Below, piece by piece: positions 56,084 through 64,000 of a stretch of 64,000 nt of DNA (position 1 is its first letter; every line of letters starts with the position of its first letter). Below the pieces are notes generated by a model. The model saw only the letters and a list, made by a program, of their open reading frames with translations. It made no database searches and had not been told where the DNA came from. The position numbers and the translations under genes are program-made. The DNA is from an uncultured Eubacteriales bacterium (GTDB taxonomy: Bacteria; Bacillota; Clostridia; Oscillospirales; CAG-272), in contig CAKRQL010000005.1 in the NCBI GenBank assembly GCA_934393265.1, positions 1,897 to 65,896 on the forward strand, read 5' to 3'.

Positions 56084-56473
56084 TCAAATCCCAAAGAACC
56101 GCTCAAAGAAGCCCTTTAGTTTTTCTATGATTCCGCGCTTTTTCTCCGCGCGGTTCCCGCCGCCGAAGCGGGATGTGGGCGGCATCAGTTTGTCAATATC
56201 GGTGCCGGTCGTCTTAATCTCCCCGTCGCGGAAGGCGTTATCGATAAATTTACGTGTCTCGCTCTCGTTAAGCTTTTCGTCGGCAATGATGGCGGACAGC
56301 TCTTTTTCCTTTTCCTCTGCCACATAGCCGTGCCATTCGGTCAGCACGTCTTCCACGTCGTTGATGCCGGAAATGAAGGTCTCAATCAATGCCTTTTTAC
56401 TGCGCAGCTCGGGGCTGGCATCAACGGCTTTCTGAATCGTGATCAGAACCTCTTTGTCTGTCCCGTGCGTATA
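56084..56473 (-). pseudogene. hsdR: 3' remnant of a type I restriction enzyme R subunit (HsdR, EcoR124-like C-terminal domain)
   Basis: The frame is open from the TGA at about 56474-56476 to the stop at 56084. It reads PYYTHGTDKEVLITIQKAVDASPELRSKKALIETFI...FRDGEIKTTGTDIDKLMPPTSRFGGGNRAEKKRGIIEKLKGFFERFFGI. No helicase part and no ATG. Confidence 0.6.
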
Positions 56474-56773: not shown

Positions 56774-56849
56774 CTGGGTGTGGCGCAGTTGGTAGCGCGC
56801 TACCTTGGGGTGGTAGAGGCCGCAAGTTCAAGTCTTGTCACTCAGACCA
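56774..56849 (+). tRNA. tRNA-Pro (anticodon GGG), CCA encoded
   Basis: Hand-folded cloverleaf. Acceptor CTGGGTG/CACTCAG, D arm GCGC-AGTTGGTA-GCGC, anticodon stem CTACC/GGTAG with loop TTGGGGT, T loop TTCAAGT, 3' ACCA. Confidence 0.88.
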
Positions 56850-57128: not shown

Positions 57129-57488
57129 ATGAATATGAAAAATGCTATCACATACAAAAACAGGAACGGTTACCTTTATCCCCTGCTGGCACTTTCCGAA
57201 ACAGAAGAAGCGCCGATCGGCAAATACGGGTGGATGTATCTTGACTATCTAAAGAAATATCGGCGAGGTACATATACTTCTCTGCTGACAAGTGGCAATC
57301 TTGGTGAAGAACTCTCCAAATTTGACGCAGAAGTGCGAAATGAAGTTGACCTCATACTTGCCCGGCTTATAGATGAACGAGGCATCACAGAAACTCTGAA
57401 AGCCGCGAACCCGCTTCGTTGGGCGCAGGAAATGAATACCGCAAAGCATGATGCAGAAGAAACTGTATTGCATGATTACCTGAAATAA
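57129..57488 (+). CDS. tnpV: TnpV-family protein (Tn4451-type transposon accessory protein)
   Basis: 119 aa. PIGKYGWMYLDYLKKYRRGTYTSLLTSGNLGEEL...ERGITETLKAANPLRWAQEMN matches the TnpV pattern as I recall it. Confidence 0.78.
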   Translation: MNMKNAITYKNRNGYLYPLLALSETEEAPIGKYGWMYLDYLKKYRRGTYTSLLTSGNLGEELSKFDAEVRNEVDLILARLIDERGITETLKAANPLRWAQEMNTAKHDAEETVLHDYLK

Positions 57489-57496
57489 TGACAAAA

Positions 57497-57530
57497 GCAG
57501 AGGGCGGATATTCTGCCCTCTGCTCTTTTA
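57497..57530. terminator. Bidirectional terminator between tnpV and the convergent HEPN-like gene
   Basis: 9-bp stem gcagagggc/gccctctgc with T-rich flanks. Confidence 0.7.
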
Positions 57531-57738
57531 TTAGGTATTTGCTCCTTTATGATATGAAACGAAATTGAACTCTGAATCAAAAACGACACTATATGCAGAC
57601 TTTTCGCTCAAGAAGGTGCCCATATCGGCTCTGTGCGAAGCCTTGAAAATCATTTTCCACTACCGGGACTTTTTCTTTGCCTACGGCGATGGAGATATTT
57701 GGGAATGAAAACCAGATACAATACGACATCTTTAAGCA

Positions 57739-59433
57739 TTAGATTTCCGGATCATACCCTTGACAATAAACAAGTAATATCAGAAAAAATGCTTCTGCTT
57801 CTTGAATGCTGAATTGTGTGGTTGACGAAAGGCCGCTATGAAAACTACGATTTCGAAAATTCCCGCCTAATTTTCTGCATAAACGGTATTCCAATTGTTG
57901 CACCAAAGAGGGATCCAACACTTCAAGAAGTGCATTTCGAAAATAGTTTTGACGATTCCCTTTCTGCACTAACATGTTATTTATGTTTATAGTGTTGCCG
58001 TTGTGGATTGGATAAATATGTTTTCGATCTTTTATGTAAGATAAGAAACCGTTTTCAAGCTGAGGAATCAGATAGTATAATGCATCGCTAATATTTTTTC
58101 GGAGTCCAGAAAGAATCTTCTCGAATACTACTGCATATCTGTCTTTGGGAACAAACAAATTGTGAGATAGCAGATCACTAATAAAATCAGTAAAGTCTTG
58201 ATCAATTTTCAGATTATCAATAAATGGTCCCAAAGTCAGCTGACAGGAGACGACGGTGTGAAAATTATAAATGTCGGATATAATCCGTTCTTTGGTATCT
58301 TCATCTGTCGCAACAGCAGATTCGTAGTCAATCGTTCCGTTATTATTAAAACTGATATTATTCATCTCGTATCGAGGAGAGCCTTTTCGTTTCTGGTACT
58401 CTTTTTCGGCGTTAGCAACTTCATATGGCTTGAAGTATTCCAAAAAAGCCAGAAATTGCATTGTCCCATCAGGCAGAGCTTGCATGGTTTCAATCATCTT
58501 TTTCTGGTAAGATTCTGCCTTATTTGACAGATCATCATCCAACTCAAAGGTCATTGACTTCATGTCCAAAGAACTATATAATTTCTTCTGTTCCTCCTCG
58601 CTCATAAACTTCAGGTCTGAAAATTGGGGTGATGATTCGCTAAAGTAAGAAGCTGCCCGTTCAAGATAACGATAGCCATGAGGAGAAGTTCGGTTTGCAA
58701 CTTTTTTCGCTATATCAGCATAACGCAATTTCCATTTTTCTTTTTCGTTCGAATCCTTTATATGATGGAACAAGTTATCAATAATATCAAGAGAAATTGG
58801 CTCATCAAGGTGTTTATCAATAGTCATGTTTGCCGCCGAAATTCCTTTTTGTATCAAGGAAGGCGCGAATTTGGGAATGAACTTAGACAAATAAAACACC
58901 AACGAAAACTCAACCTCATCGGAATAGTCTTTTTGCTCAAGCAAATCTATGACAATACTTTTCATATTTTGCTTTTTCCCGTTTTGGTTAAGCAAATACA
59001 AACACCGTTGTAGTGGCGGAATGAATTCATGCGTTTTTCCGCAATCGACAAGTTCACTGAAATTCTTGTAATATTCCTCGGCTGCCTGAAGCTTTAATTC
59101 CTTATCTTCTTTCAAAAATCCGACAACATCAAGTATTTTGGCTCTTAATGCATGAGATTCTGTTAAGTCCAATAAAGACAAAGCAGTAGCTAAGTCTTCT
59201 TCGGAAAGATCAGAAGGTTGAATACTTCTTTTTTCTTTCAACACCATCATCGGTGAAAAGGGACATGGCTGATATAAATTCGGCTGATATATAAAACTAA
59301 AGCGACCTTTGAGAAAATTTATGGCATCTTCTATGTTCCGAGGCATTGATACTGCCTTTGTGCGATATTTCATCAAGCCCATTGTCAAAATAGCTTTGTT
59401 TTCATCGAAATATTGTTCTATTTTATCCATCAA
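57739..59433 (-). CDS. Large hypothetical protein with C-terminal Rx4H HEPN-like motif (DUF4209-like, from memory)
   Basis: 564 aa, about 28-42% GC on sampled lines. The C-terminus reads CRKLGGNFRNRSFHSGLSS (R-x4-H). GAGG RBS. No TM segment or signal peptide. Confidence 0.8.
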   Translation of the reverse strand: MMDKIEQYFDENKAILTMGLMKYRTKAVSMPRNIEDAINFLKGRFSFIYQPNLYQPCPFSPMMVLKEKRSIQPSDLSEEDLATALSLLDLTESHALRAKILDVVGFLKEDKELKLQAAEEYYKNFSELVDCGKTHEFIPPLQRCLYLLNQNGKKQNMKSIVIDLLEQKDYSDEVEFSLVFYLSKFIPKFAPSLIQKGISAANMTIDKHLDEPISLDIIDNLFHHIKDSNEKEKWKLRYADIAKKVANRTSPHGYRYLERAASYFSESSPQFSDLKFMSEEEQKKLYSSLDMKSMTFELDDDLSNKAESYQKKMIETMQALPDGTMQFLAFLEYFKPYEVANAEKEYQKRKGSPRYEMNNISFNNNGTIDYESAVATDEDTKERIISDIYNFHTVVSCQLTLGPFIDNLKIDQDFTDFISDLLSHNLFVPKDRYAVVFEKILSGLRKNISDALYYLIPQLENGFLSYIKDRKHIYPIHNGNTININNMLVQKGNRQNYFRNALLEVLDPSLVQQLEYRLCRKLGGNFRNRSFHSGLSSTTQFSIQEAEAFFLILLVYCQGYDPEI

Positions 59434-59549
59434 TGTACCTCATTTTTATACAACATACTAAAACGAGAAATCTTTTAGTCAACTTGATCTATTTTGCACC
59501 TATTTTTATGAGAATATCTTGCGAAAAAGCTCGTCCCAGCGGACTAAAA

Positions 59550-62500
59550 TTACCCTTTTATCGCCTCCAGCACCCGATCCACGGTCTTGCCGTCCCAGCC
59601 GGTGCAGAGCATTTGCTTGGTGATGATGGTTTTATAGAGCGGGTTTTGCTCGATGACGCTCCAGAGATGGCGTAGGATGTGGATATAGTCATCAAAGCTA
59701 TCCTGCACTTTGGCAGCCACGGTTTTGCGCCACTCCTCGGCGGGTTCTTTGCCGGCGTAAATGTCGTTGAGCTGCTTGCAGAGATAATTGATGGCACCGC
59801 CGATACCGGGAAATTCGCTTTCGTTGGCGTCCGGATTTCTCGGTTCTTCCGCAATCTTTACATGGAGCAACAGATGTTCGAGCAGATTGCAATAGACAAG
59901 CCGATTCTTTTTCTGATACTCAAACGGATTCCGCGCGGCATACTCGTCATTGCTGAGCATGATTGCCTTATCTTCATCGATATGATGGCAGAAGAGGCCT
60001 TCGGCGGTACGGGAAACCAATTTGTTCTTGATAGTGCATTCTCTGTCGGTGAAATAATCGTGCTTTGCGGCACCGTATTTTTTTAGAAGAAGATCAACAA
60101 GCATTTCATATCCATAGCTCAACATTTCTTCTATATGAGATTGACCAACCATTGGACGCATGGTATGCTCTATTAGATCAATTTCCTGCGAATCTAAGCC
60201 ATATTTTTTGTATAAATCCTCGTCACAGTGAATCGCCGCATAATCCTCTATTGGCACAAACATGAAGTTTTTTTGTGAAATGTTCATTGACGATAGCGTT
60301 TGCCGAAGCAAAAACCGCGGAAACTTTAGAGAAATATATCGTACAAAATCATTCGCTTCATTCTCGGTGTTGAAAACTCCCAAAATCATATAAGTAAAGT
60401 TACAAATCTGATTTGGTCTTAAAATACGAGGTTTTGTTATCGCATTATAACCTTTTGCAGGGTCGATTCCCACTTCGCCATTAGATGGAACTACACGAGC
60501 AATATATACTTTCCACAAACCAACAATATCCTTGTTTTTTACGATGGCATCTTTGCTTACATATCCAATTCCCTTACTGTGAATCAGTTCTATGCAACGA
60601 TGTTCCGTCTTAACATCAAATCCCTTATCTTTTGTCGAAAATCCAAATGGGTCTAACGGATACACCACATCTGATAACATTCTAATGGACATAGTTTTTA
60701 CCTTATGGATAATGCTAATTGCGGCATTCGACCTTACAAATATGTTATCAAATTCATTCAGAGTTCTCGACATTCTTGTAACAGTACCACCTATTCTATT
60801 TACGACTTCGCAAGAAGCGTTACTGTTAGGAGTTCGCAAAAAATAACATACACCCCCGGCTATATCCACTGTTGGAAAACACTCTCTAGAGTTTGGATAA
60901 TCAACGAGTTTTTTTATCTTTTCGTCGTTAAGCATTGTAAATCTGAAATCATCTAATCCGATTCCCCCTGAAAACCATCGCGACGGAATTATCATAGAAA
61001 TGTATTGCACATTTACTTTCTTTGCCACATCTACAAAAAGATTAAAAATTGGTTTTGCTTGTGCTGCTGCCTTGTTTGAACTTGAATTATTAGCCGTGAT
61101 TTCTTGATACGGCGGATTCCCGACGATTGCATCGAACTTCATTTCTTTCACCTCTTTTCCCCAATAGCTGCCTTTGAGGATCTTCTTTTTGAACTGCTCC
61201 GGTTTGCTTTTCAGCATATTGACAAGGTCGTCAAAATAGTGGGCATTGACGACCTTATCGTGATAACCGGTCAGCGTGCGTTTTGTGATATATTTTGCCA
61301 TCGGGGTTTTGCAGATGACATAAATATTGTCGCGGAGAACTTCTTCCCACATGGCTTGCAGTTCGGCGGGTTCCCAGTCGTCATCGGTGGTGTCCTCCAG
61401 CTTCTGACGGTAAACACTGTAGGCGACATAGAGCGGATACAAGCCGGTCTTGGAGTTGATCTCCAGAATATGCGTATCCTCGCGGAACACTTCTTTTGTC
61501 ACATCCCCCTGATCCACAAAGCGTGGCTCGTCCAGACGGCGTTTTTCTTCCTGCGTGTCGTCCTCAAACTGTTCATTGAAGAAGCACCAACCGCCCAGCG
61601 TATCGCTCATATGCATATTGACTACACGCCACGGTGTCAGGACAGTTTCCTTATCGGGATTTTTGAAATGGCGGAAGATCTCGGCAATCAGTTTCACGCG
61701 TCTTGTAGGCGTTTCTTTGTCCGCCGCTGCCGCCAGTTTACGAATGCGCTTGCCTGCCGCAATAAACACATCGCGGTCGTAATATTTTGTGAAATCCGCA
61801 AACAGCTGCTTGGTCACGTCTTTGGGCATAAATTCCGCCCATGATGTATCGTCCACCAGTTCCACAAAGCGGTCAATGTCGATATCTTCATCAATCGGCA
61901 CATTGGCACCGTAAATCATCAGCGGCATACGGATAGAAATGCCTCGGAGAATATCAATGGCCTTTTTGCGCGCTTCCTTTGCCTGTTTCTTTTTCAGGCG
62001 ATCCGCGATTTCTTCCGGTGTCAGCGGTGTTGGAGGTGTGACGGGCTCATCATCACCGTCGTCAATATGGGCGATCTGCTCGTCGGTAAGTCCCTGACCG
62101 TTGACAACGACGCTGTCTTTTTTCTTCTGCGCTTTGGAGGCGCCGATAATATCTTTCAACGCATTGAATTTGGAGGCATCGATATCGTCAAGCTTCAGAA
62201 GCTCATCGTTATAAATGGATTCGTCTTCAAATCCGCTGTTGACGGCTCTCTCGGCGTAAATCTGCTTGACCTGCTCCATCATGGAATTGACGCTGTATTT
62301 GGTCATTCTCGATCCGGCAATCGCAATCACAGGGCAATAGTTCAGGAATTCTGTCATTACCTCACGGCGCTTTTTCTGATTCTTGCCGGGTTTACGGGAG
62401 AGATGTACGGTCTCAGTCAGCACTTTCAGGGTTCTGTCGGGTGCAAAGTCGAAAACATAGCAATCGGTTTTCTGCTTGCCGTCAATACATCCGGCAGACT

Positions 62501-63992
62501 GCACACGGAAAATGGTCTGCATATACTGAGAAGCAGCTGTGGAATAGGAGCCGGAAAGCATCAGTACCGCCGTCCACTCCGGAACGGTCACGCCCGTGGT
62601 CAGTTTCCCACAGGAAAGCGTGATGGAATACTTATTTTCACGGATGGTTTTGCGGACAAGCTCCAGCGCGTCCTTTGCGTGGTCTTCCTCGTAAGTATCG
62701 CCCTCTCCGGCGACATTGGCAATGCCGAAATGCATAAACACCGGGTGATGGCGGAGCATTTCGCTGAGTGCCTTTGCCTCTTTGACACCGGGCACCATCC
62801 ACAGCGTATGGCGGAACATATTGCGGTAGGCATCGGTAGAGAAGGGATAGATGCTGTTCTTGTCCTCTTTTGCCATCAGATCCAGGAAAGAACGGACATC
62901 CGCCTCGTGTACGAAATTGCCCTCAACAGCACCTTGCGGAATCTCACGCTTGCCATGCGGTCCTCTTGACCATACACGGAAGAATTCGCGGAAGTTGAAT
63001 GCTTTTGTATCGTATTCGTCCGAGACATATTTTTTCAGTTTTTCGCCGAGATCGTAGGTATAAATATGCATCTGCGGTAGATCGGCATAAGGGTTGTGGT
63101 CACCGTAATGCTCCGCGTCCCACTCTGCCTTTTTCTTCTGCTCCATGACATAGTCCCAGGTATAGACATTGTCTTCGCCGAACTTATCAAGCAGATTGAA
63201 CGGCGTGCCGGACAAAGCCAGCACTTTGGTGTCCGCTTTGCGCAGTTGTTTTATGACATGATCGCCCAGTTCGGTCTGTGTGCCTTCGTGGGCTTCGTCA
63301 ACGATGATAAGATCCCAGTTCAGGTCAAATACCGCGTTGTTTTTATTGAATTTTCCGCCGACACGTTTGGAGCCGCGCAGATCCTGAATCGATGCAAAAT
63401 AGAGGAAATAGGCGCCGTCTTTATCAAGCCGTTTGATTTTCAGATCATTTTCAAGGTCGATCTTCTCATCGTAGGTATAGGCGGAGTCGTTGGTTTTCAG
63501 TTCAAAGGAATAATCATGCTCGGACGAGCCCGGATAAAAGATTTTTGCAAAGTCCGTGCTCCATCCGTCGCTGACGACCGGACGATGCGTGACAATGATC
63601 ACGCGGCGATACTGCGAACGGCGCACGACTTCAAGGGCTGTCAGCGTTTTGCCAAAACGCATTTTGGCATACCACAGCATTTCGTTCTCTTTTTTGAACG
63701 CTTTGATGGTCTGTTCGATTGCCGCCTTCTGCTCATCACGGAAATCTATTCTTGCAACCGTCTGCCCGTCAGAGGTTTTCTCGGTTGCGGAAAGCGCGGA
63801 CTTGCCCTGCTTTACGGCAAGGATCGCGCGAATTGCCACATCTACCGTCGTAGCAAACCATTCCTCGCCCGTTGCACCGTTTGGCTGTACCTTATTGATG
63901 CCGGAATTCATCAGAACCTTGTGGACATCCTTGTCCTTGAAAGTGAATAAATATCCGTCCTTTTTCAGGACAGCCAGCTCGGTATATTCCAA
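59550..63992 (-). CDS. Giant fusion protein: DEAH helicase + Eco57I-like NPPY N6-adenine methyltransferase/TRD + extra HNH-like C-terminal module (5' end probably beyond window)
   Basis: At least 1480 aa. The listed start is a TTG and the frame stays open to nt 64000. Motifs: AKMRFGKT, IIVDEAHEG (63288-63299), LALSGTPF, QTIFRVQS, VGNPPYQ (61107-61118), CHHIDED...NRLVYCNLLEHLLLH (59862-59990). Confidence 0.85.
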   Translation of the reverse strand: MEYTELAVLKKDGYLFTFKDKDVHKVLMNSGINKVQPNGATGEEWFATTVDVAIRAILAVKQGKSALSATEKTSDGQTVARIDFRDEQKAAIEQTIKAFKKENEMLWYAKMRFGKTLTALEVVRRSQYRRVIIVTHRPVVSDGWSTDFAKIFYPGSSEHDYSFELKTNDSAYTYDEKIDLENDLKIKRLDKDGAYFLYFASIQDLRGSKRVGGKFNKNNAVFDLNWDLIIVDEAHEGTQTELGDHVIKQLRKADTKVLALSGTPFNLLDKFGEDNVYTWDYVMEQKKKAEWDAEHYGDHNPYADLPQMHIYTYDLGEKLKKYVSDEYDTKAFNFREFFRVWSRGPHGKREIPQGAVEGNFVHEADVRSFLDLMAKEDKNSIYPFSTDAYRNMFRHTLWMVPGVKEAKALSEMLRHHPVFMHFGIANVAGEGDTYEEDHAKDALELVRKTIRENKYSITLSCGKLTTGVTVPEWTAVLMLSGSYSTAASQYMQTIFRVQSAGCIDGKQKTDCYVFDFAPDRTLKVLTETVHLSRKPGKNQKKRREVMTEFLNYCPVIAIAGSRMTKYSVNSMMEQVKQIYAERAVNSGFEDESIYNDELLKLDDIDASKFNALKDIIGASKAQKKKDSVVVNGQGLTDEQIAHIDDGDDEPVTPPTPLTPEEIADRLKKKQAKEARKKAIDILRGISIRMPLMIYGANVPIDEDIDIDRFVELVDDTSWAEFMPKDVTKQLFADFTKYYDRDVFIAAGKRIRKLAAAADKETPTRRVKLIAEIFRHFKNPDKETVLTPWRVVNMHMSDTLGGWCFFNEQFEDDTQEEKRRLDEPRFVDQGDVTKEVFREDTHILEINSKTGLYPLYVAYSVYRQKLEDTTDDDWEPAELQAMWEEVLRDNIYVICKTPMAKYITKRTLTGYHDKVVNAHYFDDLVNMLKSKPEQFKKKILKGSYWGKEVKEMKFDAIVGNPPYQEITANNSSSNKAAAQAKPIFNLFVDVAKKVNVQYISMIIPSRWFSGGIGLDDFRFTMLNDEKIKKLVDYPNSRECFPTVDIAGGVCYFLRTPNSNASCEVVNRIGGTVTRMSRTLNEFDNIFVRSNAAISIIHKVKTMSIRMLSDVVYPLDPFGFSTKDKGFDVKTEHRCIELIHSKGIGYVSKDAIVKNKDIVGLWKVYIARVVPSNGEVGIDPAKGYNAITKPRILRPNQICNFTYMILGVFNTENEANDFVRYISLKFPRFLLRQTLSSMNISQKNFMFVPIEDYAAIHCDEDLYKKYGLDSQEIDLIEHTMRPMVGQSHIEEMLSYGYEMLVDLLLKKYGAAKHDYFTDRECTIKNKLVSRTAEGLFCHHIDEDKAIMLSNDEYAARNPFEYQKKNRLVYCNLLEHLLLHVKIAEEPRNPDANESEFPGIGGAINYLCKQLNDIYAGKEPAEEWRKTVAAKVQDSFDDYIHILRHLWSVIEQNPLYKTIITKQMLCTGWDGKTVDRVLEAIKG

Positions 63993-64000
63993 CTTAAAGT

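Follow-up and report, generated by a model that had tools for sequence, protein, structure and literature searches.

Is a HEPN-like gene that lies directly behind the gene of a giant helicase-methyltransferase the second half of a two-gene system, or is it a defence gene in its own right? The question is raised by a stretch of contig CAKRQL010000005.1 (positions 1,897 to 65,896 of the forward strand; assembly GCA_934393265.1) from an uncultured Eubacteriales bacterium of the CAG-272 lineage (Clostridia; Oscillospirales). In this stretch of 64,000 nucleotides (nt), hereafter the window, a minus-strand open reading frame (ORF) follows the giant gene and encodes a protein with an R-x4-H motif close to its C-terminus. 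The initial annotation proposed that the two genes act together, with restriction as the first line and an RNase as the second. Here, we find by profile comparison that the protein is a divergent member of the DUF7380 / helical-repeat / DUF4209 family, catalogued by PADLOC as PDC-S39, and comparison of loci indicates that its gene occupies a variable slot as exchangeable cargo and is not a dedicated partner of the giant enzyme. The gene is probably, if not securely, a stand-alone, single-gene phage-defence candidate of PDC-S39 that encodes an autoinhibited abortive-infection RNase of HEPN type.

Results

A divergent member of the PDC-S39 family

The HEPN-like ORF is a real, functional gene, as it has homologues in 338 clusters and the ratio of non-synonymous to synonymous substitution rates (dN/dS) over the whole ORF is 0.21-0.23 when compared with two variants of about 90% identity. 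The clusters were recovered by an exhaustive HMMER search using a profile of close relatives (expectation value, E, <=1e-3), and nearly all consist of proteins of 550-620 amino acids that align end to end and have the same architecture. A word-indexed homologue search returned 8-9 matches only, with either the single protein or a 126-sequence profile as query.

The N-terminal part of the window protein (residues ~36-157) matches Pfam DUF7380 (PF24098) at 43.5 bits against a cut-off of 27 (E 4e-11), and precomputed annotation assigns PF24098 to all close homologues. The PADLOC profiles of PDC-S39 match the protein over nearly its full length, with PDLC05011 (E 2e-21) pairing residues 47-547 with a profile of 595 and PDLC05012 matching at E 2.4e-20; PDC-S39 is likewise matched by 28 of 28 members of the close subfamily. 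A likeness to DUF4209, which the initial annotation had proposed from the context of the motif, is borne out. Pfam DUF4209 (PF13910) aligns with residues 501-550 at 20.0 bits (E 7e-4; 16.8 bits for the isolated C-terminal domain), and among 40 C-terminal domains of the family it is matched in 38 at E<=0.01 and in all 40 at E<=10, the best at 1e-21. A profile of the window subclade pulls in proteins of ~600 amino acids (E 1e-17 to 1e-6), typical members of which score well above threshold for both DUF7380 and DUF4209. Taken together, the DUF7380, transitive DUF4209 and PDC-S39 matches indicate that the window protein is a divergent but genuine member of this family. Its subclade is rare, is found in Clostridia and the gut, and is 15-20% identical to the bulk of PDC-S39.

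DUF4209 is the C6orf70/ERMARD-type family, classed in 2013 as catalytically active HEPN on the basis of computational prediction (Anantharaman et al., PMC3710099). DUF4209/C6orf70 proteins include TPR fusions, and the bacterial members occur in operons related to restriction-modification (R-M) (PMC3710099). According to Payne et al. (bioRxiv 10.1101/2024.01.29.577857), PDC families are PADLOC candidates that were picked out by 'guilt-by-embedding', their genes lying within BREX, DISARM or type I R-M systems.

Outside these resources few relatives were found. NCBIfam gave no match to the window protein and PHROGs only a weak one, to a family of unknown function. With tblastn, no homologue was detected in phage records, and plasmids yielded one weak match to a Bacillus thuringiensis hypothetical protein. 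An alignment-based contig search for the family recovered one locus, in a metagenome-assembled genome, among genome contigs, and no locus in viral contigs. A fusion protein of 1073 amino acids was also observed (P0039; L024 8001-11222), in which an N-terminal DUF4238 is joined to a full DUF7380/DUF4209-type protein; its gene lies between an MspI-type R-M system and Hachiman (HamA and a DEAD helicase).

Catalytic signature and predicted structure

Two motifs have been described for HEPN proteins, R-[polar]-x3-H and Ex3[K/R], whereby the acidic residue is located in helix 2, the R-[polar]-x3-H motif at the distorted end of helix 3, and an insert between helices 2 and 3 (PMC3710099). Conservation was analysed by aligning 126 diverse, full-length homologues, most of which share 15-30% identity with the window protein. 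Three residues only, E459, R526 and H531, show no variation in any of the 126. At the position following the arginine (527), 115 sequences have N, 5 have H and 4 have D, so that one of these three residues is present in 124 of 126. Position 463, four residues after E459, is R or K in 116 of 126; the window protein and the relatives nearest to it have L there. Both HEPN motifs are kept by the family, as R-N-x3-H and Ex3[K/R]. Positions conserved in at least 90% of the alignment are D101, A116, R142, G442, L454, Q457 and N527. The initial annotation had placed an Rx4H motif 41 residues from the C-terminus; the motif stands, with R526 as the 38th residue counted from that end. Taken alone, it is weak evidence, because Rx4H occurs in the last 120 amino acids of 8% of composition-preserving shuffles. 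It gains significance from the invariance of R526 and H531 across the alignment.

AlphaFold2, supplied with the 126-homologue alignment, predicts an all-alpha protein with a predicted local distance difference test score (pLDDT) of 95 and a predicted template-modelling score (pTM) of 0.87; the isolated C-terminal domain is modelled at a pLDDT of 89.5. The order of the C-terminal helices (Table 1) agrees with the published HEPN description (PMC3710099), in that helix 2 holds E, helices 2 and 3 are separated by the insert, and helix 3 ends in the motif. The middle region (residues 157-407) gave only weak matches in a profile search of the PDB, to alpha-SNAP, the kinesin light chain TPR and designed helical repeats, and is a putative sensor or regulatory scaffold. 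By region, dN/dS is lowest for residues 408-563 (0.05-0.09) and highest for residues 171-407 (0.31-0.39). Such a pattern is in line with a conserved effector fused to a sensor or regulatory part that evolves more quickly, and makes the N-terminal sensor suggested in the initial annotation plausible.

A second near-invariant cluster, formed by D101, A116 and R142 (window ~59003-59130, minus strand; 94-95% of the 126 homologues), is located within DUF7380, distant from the HEPN-like motif. It may represent a ligand-binding or regulatory site.

Several observations weigh against a reading of the protein as a HEPN-type RNase of phage defence. The window protein falls below the Pfam gathering cut-off for DUF4209 (20.0 versus 22.3 bits) and, having L463, is without the K/R of Ex3[K/R]. 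When the full-length model was compared with the PDB using Foldseek, generic solenoid/TPR proteins only were returned (best E 6e-3, TM-score <0.3) and no HEPN structure; the C-terminal model gave a best E of ~1, again with no HEPN structure, and sequence and profile searches of the PDB revealed no relative of the C-terminal domain. In the full-text literature, DUF4209 appears only in the 2013 computational paper and DUF7380 nowhere; PDC-S39 turns up in three papers, of which the two listed mention it once each, and they include, by title or abstract, no functional study. Foldseek of the C-terminal model against BFVD gave no HEPN match, and Pfam searches with the 40 C-terminal domains, at E up to 10, gave no cross-matches to other HEPN-clan families. 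A putative HEPN fold at the C-terminus, as the initial annotation had it, agrees with helix topology and motifs only, and Foldseek gave no significant PDB match for models that are themselves confident.

A protein that is not a defence nuclease at all would account for part of this. It could be a helical scaffold or regulator, in which E, R and H bind a ligand or nucleic acid, for instance through a non-catalytic HEPN-like domain or some other helical domain, with a role in RNA processing, stress response or mobile-element biology. The lack of a structural match to HEPN RNases in Foldseek is in line with such a role, as is the fact that TPR-like repeats make up most of the protein. Furthermore, the RNase activity of eukaryotic C6orf70/ERMARD is itself only predicted (Anantharaman et al., PMC3710099), and some contexts have no obvious defence neighbour, for example a conjugative element (L016) and a Bacillus thuringiensis megaplasmid (L114). 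We nevertheless consider this unlikely. The E...R-N-x3-H signature is absolutely invariant, and sits in HEPN-typical helices, across sequences that are 15-30% identical, and very strong purifying selection acts on the C-terminal domain. The patchy distribution, low GC (guanine plus cytosine) content and location in variable slots beside Kiwa, Hachiman, GmrSD and R-M systems point to defence cargo as opposed to a housekeeping gene.

Linkage to the giant helicase-methyltransferase

The HEPN-like gene lies on the same strand as the giant gene, 116 nt beyond the stop codon of the latter at 59550, as the initial annotation had noted, and no terminator-like site was found on the minus strand in this gap. 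The arrangement could reflect a dedicated two-gene system, in which restriction acts first and the RNase serves as backstop or, in a PrrC-like version, the RNase is latched by the R-M enzyme and freed by phage anti-restriction attack. It recurs, with the organisation seen in the window, in 13 contigs that are 100% identical (P0001), and again in a sibling variant of ~90% identity (P0159; at least 24 contigs), which contains a serine recombinase, an S24 repressor, a SLFN_AlbA_2/HATPase regulator, a 334-amino-acid type II methyltransferase and the giant gene. Conservation between the two island variants extends to ~100 nt of sequence ahead of the ORF. The same-strand, terminator-free position downstream of the giant gene in both variants counts against a fully independent gene, and on that account local co-transcription or functional synergy with the giant enzyme may occur. 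A wider connection also exists, given that the family is R-M-associated (PMC3710099), that PDC families are found embedded in R-M, BREX and DISARM loci (bioRxiv 10.1101/2024.01.29.577857), and that four of nine distinct contexts have an R-M system or a methyltransferase no more than 10 kb away.

The linkage is, however, broken in both directions. In the sibling variant, the two genes are separated by an unrelated gene of 417-446 amino acids, the insertion point of which coincides exactly with the giant gene's stop codon (window 59542/59535). A copy of the HEPN-like gene with 91% identity, together with six more distant homologues, occurs without any homologue of the giant enzyme. The closest of these (P0002; 7 contigs, 90% identity at the protein level) is found with divergent Dam-type and N4/N6 methyltransferases and GmrSD on an unrelated, integrative mobilisable element with MobL and integrases. 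The 58% homologue (P0006) starts 18 nt after a Fic gene and is near a type I R-M system, the 47% homologue (P0008) lies with DUF6788 and PcfJ/K on a conjugative element, and two homologues at 32% are accompanied by an AAA_21 ATPase pair, PemK, an integrase and a relaxase (P0009) or by FRG (P0011). A homologue at 31% (P0014) neighbours DUF2971, radical SAM and NADAR genes, and the distant DUF4238 fusion (P0039; not aligned) is placed beside MspI R-M and Hachiman. A tblastn search with the giant protein found no homologue in 19 loci of seven other variants of the HEPN-like gene.

The reverse comparison gave the same picture. More than 573 relatives of the giant enzyme are present in metagenome contigs, and the best 80 loci (48-96% identity) were scanned with the family hidden Markov model (HMM), with 62 of the 80 being informative (at least 1.8 kb downstream) and a positive control detected in 9/9 cases. 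A DUF7380/DUF4209 gene was found in 0/80, and thus in 0/62 informative loci; the slot of close relatives holds other defence cargo or nothing. Co-occurrence of the two genes was seen in only one island lineage (P0001 and P0159). In addition, the R-M neighbours of the HEPN-like gene are of differing types (helicase-methyltransferase, Dam plus N4/N6 methyltransferases, type I, MspI), which argues against a specific protein-protein latch, and Pfam detects no ABC-ATPase domain of the PrrC/RloC kind.

A dedicated two-gene system is therefore improbable, and the conserved linkage to helicase-methyltransferase genes on which it would depend is absent from the loci compared. Since the linkage is broken both ways and the cargo of the slot varies, the pairing is one of descent within a single island lineage, at a variable cargo slot, and not a conserved functional pair. 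The conserved feature is a loose connection to R-M systems and to defence islands. The broader connection of HEPN proteins with R-M and defence, cited in the initial annotation, holds up in this form: DUF4209 members occur in R-M related operons (PMC3710099), and homologues of the window protein are found in defence islands or on mobile elements, with Kiwa, Hachiman, GmrSD and R-M systems as neighbours. By blastn, what the window and the P0002-type copies have in common, at 91% nucleotide identity, is a segment made up of the ribosome-binding site, the ORF and 163 nt of flanking sequence on the 3' side; it is this unit that has passed from one context to another.

The cargo slot and its island

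The slot spans from the stop codon of the giant gene to TnpV/tRNA-Pro (~59550 to 57700), and all insertions begin directly after that stop codon. Close relatives match the window at 95% identity in the 3' end of the giant gene and have the TnpV/tRNA flank in common with it; their slot contains nothing (L029), a Ppl-like ATPase with DUF2130 (L033), KwaA/KwaB (Kiwa) with a methyltransferase-like gene, DUF1848 and PDC-S31 (L047), or a 540-amino-acid gene of unknown kind (L036). In the sibling islands (L106-L113), the extra gene of 417-446 amino acids, also of unknown kind, precedes the HEPN-like gene. No direct or inverted repeats pointing to a site-specific recombination site were found around the cassette.

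TnpV forms the conserved right-hand border. Homology to sibling islands ends at or inside the 3' end of tRNA-Pro (56846 or 56805), and tRNA-Pro(GGG) is the probable attachment site of the island. A copy of this tRNA, 98.8% identical over 81 nt, is situated ~210 nt away from the 58% homologue (P0006) of another genome (contigs L012, L013 and L015), which suggests a recurrent tRNA-Pro integration hot-spot. An ORF of 101 amino acids on the minus strand (56084-56389) is equivalent to the C-terminus of a type I restriction HsdR subunit (Pfam EcoR124_C in identical contigs) and probably represents a remnant; in sibling islands, a type I R-M system is present in full beyond TnpV.

The giant enzyme itself, which runs off the window, comprises 1480 amino acids as an ORF in the window and 1550 in identical contigs (L001 5229-9881). 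Domain searches detected no nuclease domain in it, and no sequence relative was found in the PDB. Its gene start is overlapped by a type II methyltransferase gene of 330-334 amino acids (PADLOC MTase_II, 2e-127), ahead of which lies a SLFN_AlbA_2/HATPase_c_4 gene. Within the giant gene, ~1 kb (60100-61102, minus strand) is non-homologous to the sibling islands, with flanks that are 95-96% identical and a GC content that drops to ~37%; the target-recognition region appears to have been exchanged here.

Start codon and local signals

In the ORF listing the minus-strand frame extends over 57739..59433 and gives 564 amino acids if read from TTG, the in-frame ATG being the next codon, at 59430. The ORF thus stands as initially annotated, with a different start: as all database homologues of the protein are 563 amino acids long, ATG 59430 is the likely initiation codon. 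Other features reported at the outset were confirmed. The GC content of the ORF is 36.6% compared with 56.4% for window positions 1-55000, a GAGG ribosome-binding site of its own precedes the gene, and the protein has no transmembrane segment (maximum Kyte-Doolittle 19-residue mean of 1.2). By blastn, the ribosome-binding site falls within the segment common to the window and the P0002-type copies. The promoter proposed earlier, TTGACT-16-TAGTAT, is present as a sequence and has lost its value as evidence on its own, because sites matching 9/12 positions are so frequent (12 in the 2.4 kb scanned versus 6.5 +/- 2.5 in shuffles). It is kept at ~90% in the sibling islands L106-L113 and missing in P0002-type copies, where homology begins at 59440. 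Transcription would proceed by read-through from the giant gene and/or from this weak promoter.

Downstream, where TnpV and the HEPN-like gene converge, a GC-rich hairpin lies between them. It can act as a terminator for TnpV and may, as a bidirectional intrinsic terminator, do so for the HEPN-like gene too. The 3' flank also includes a plus-strand sequence (57576-57708) of ~44 codons, the last being TGA, which resembles the 3' part of a small ORF that is truncated in the window and complete, with 92 amino acids, in L047 (8601-8879, minus strand). This fragment accompanies the HEPN-like ORF in P0002-type copies, the homology of which stops exactly at 57576.

That the gene encodes the toxin of a toxin-antitoxin or addiction module, stabilising the mobile island and neutralised by a small neighbour as in HEPN-MNT pairs, is highly improbable: the gene is always on mobile or integrative elements (with TnpV, integrases, relaxases or recombinases), many HEPN proteins are toxins of this kind (PMC3710099) and the truncated small-ORF remnant travels in the 3' flank, but no conserved small adjacent gene and no nucleotidyltransferase (MNT) is present in any context examined, the unit common to the contexts holds only the ORF and non-coding or truncated flank, and 563 amino acids with a 400-residue helical N-terminal part fit autoinhibition in cis better.

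Table 1 Features of the HEPN-like gene, its protein and the surrounding slot, in window coordinates
Feature	Position (nt)	Strand	Residues	Basis
Protein-coding gene, 563 amino acids from ATG, stop codon 57739-57741; DUF7380 / TPR-like / DUF4209 family (PDC-S39)	57739..59430	-		ORF, Pfam, PADLOC, dN/dS
DUF7380 match, holding the nearly invariant D101, A116 and R142	58963..59325	-		Pfam PF24098, conservation
Middle all-alpha, TPR-like helical-repeat region, fastest-evolving	58210..58962	-	157-407	AlphaFold2, weak profile matches, Foldseek, dN/dS
C-terminal DUF4209 / HEPN-like domain	57742..58209	-	408-563	Pfam, AlphaFold2, topology, dN/dS
Predicted helix 1			429-443	AlphaFold2
Predicted helix 2, holding E459			447-468	AlphaFold2
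Predicted insert: beta-hairpin and two short helices			469-506	AlphaFold2
Predicted helix 3, kinked, terminating in RNxxxH			507-518 and 525-531	AlphaFold2
Predicted helix 4			542-557	AlphaFold2
Codon of E459, invariant acidic residue in predicted helix 2, E of the family Ex3[K/R]	58054..58056	-		Conservation, AlphaFold2
Codons of R526-N-R-S-F-H531, putative catalytic R-[N]-x3-H motif	57838..57855	-		Sequence, conservation
GAGG ribosome-binding site, 7 nt before ATG 59430 and 4 nt before TTG 59433	59438..59441	-		Read from sequence
Weak sigma-70-like promoter candidate TTGACT-16-TAGTAT	59455..59482	-		9/12 consensus positions
Segment common with P0002-type copies	57576..59440	-		blastn
Upstream neighbour (giant enzyme): helicase (ResIII), Eco57I-type methyltransferase and SAV1803-like C-terminal domain; runs off the window	59550..64000	-		ORF, Pfam, PADLOC
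GC-rich hairpin (16 bp) flanked by AAAA and TTTT	57493..57527	.		Terminator and repeat scans
TnpV gene, right-hand border of the slot	57129..57488	+		ORF, sibling comparison
tRNA-Pro(GGG)	56774..56849	+		ARAGORN

Discussion

As a stand-alone defence gene, the HEPN-like ORF would encode a protein in which ~400 residues of DUF7380 and TPR-like repeats form an N-terminal scaffold that holds the RNase silent and senses an infection cue. The C-terminal DUF4209 domain would then act as a metal-independent RNase by means of E459 and R526-N527-x3-H531. Once activated, the protein would probably be a dimer, pairing two Rx4H motifs as other HEPN RNases do, and would cleave cellular and/or phage RNA such that the infection is aborted. 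This mechanism is drawn from established HEPN biology and from the precedent of HEC-08, a single gene combining a DUF3644 HEPN domain with a zinc ribbon, in which mutation of the Rx4-6H histidine leads to loss of defence (bioRxiv 10.1101/2024.01.29.577857). HEC-08 and the window protein are alike in being single polypeptides with a predicted HEPN domain that are embedded in defence loci, which makes HEC-08 a functional precedent; the window protein would work in the manner of single-gene HEPN effectors of the Abi or HEC-08 type. It belongs, in contrast, to another HEPN family, with no sequence relation detected; its HEPN domain is N-terminal and has a structural match to HEPN toxins in the PDB, whereas that of the window protein is C-terminal and has no HEPN match in Foldseek.

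The closest known system is PDC-S39 itself, with which the window protein has in common the full-length HMM match and the occurrence as a single gene within or beside R-M and further defence loci. The window protein differs from it in its 15-20% identity to the family bulk, in L463 and in the sub-threshold DUF4209 score, and PDC-S39 is in turn a prediction. In the case of C6orf70/ERMARD, the common features are DUF4209 homology, R-N-x3-H, an upstream acidic residue, a TPR-like fusion and the R-M association of the bacterial members. The eukaryotic members contain a transmembrane helix and locate to the endoplasmic reticulum, whereas the window protein is predicted to be soluble and has the bacterial DUF7380 N-terminus.

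PrrC and RloC are HEPN-type RNases genetically linked to R-M and provide the conceptual model of an 'RNase backstop'. Both possess an N-terminal ABC-ATPase, and PrrC is found almost exclusively within type I R-M loci (bioRxiv 10.1101/2024.01.29.577857). The window protein is not of the PrrC/RloC kind, as it has no ATPase domain (Pfam, NCBIfam), an all-alpha model and no conserved R-M partner, nor is it a HEPN-MNT toxin, as no MNT neighbour occurs in the contexts examined. The lactococcal Abi HEPN proteins (AbiD/F/J/U2/V, plus AbiA's C-terminal domain) confer stand-alone abortive infection and are located on mobile elements (PMC3710099); they differ from the window protein in size and N-terminal domains, and no sequence similarity was detected, with no Pfam cross-matches at E up to 10.

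A more far-reaching proposal, which we consider doubtful at best, is that DUF7380/DUF4209 proteins are structurally unrepresented RNase effectors, with HEPN-like catalytic residues set on a fold for which Foldseek finds no link to a solved HEPN, that act as generic guards of R-M integrity, sensing anti-restriction factors or DNA-modification status via DUF7380/TPR (D101, R142). Separately, the stop codon of the giant gene would be a targeted exchange site for defence cassettes. Such a site, 3' of the stop codon, would explain both the local pairing and the frequent replacement.

The family was already catalogued as PDC-S39, with its HEPN RNase activity predicted in 2013, and a divergent member is added here. 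As it stands, the outcome is an ordinary annotation result, in which the two-gene hypothesis is corrected and a swappable slot 3' of the giant gene is documented. The locus offers a clean natural experiment, in which the gene acts as a defence cassette that is independent and can be swapped. It also yields a confident structural model for a protein without a solved relative, and names targets for mutation: E459, R526, N527 and H531, plus D101 and R142 in the N-terminal part. If RNase-dependent abortive infection were demonstrated, a PADLOC candidate would be validated, and the result would also shed light on what human ERMARD does.

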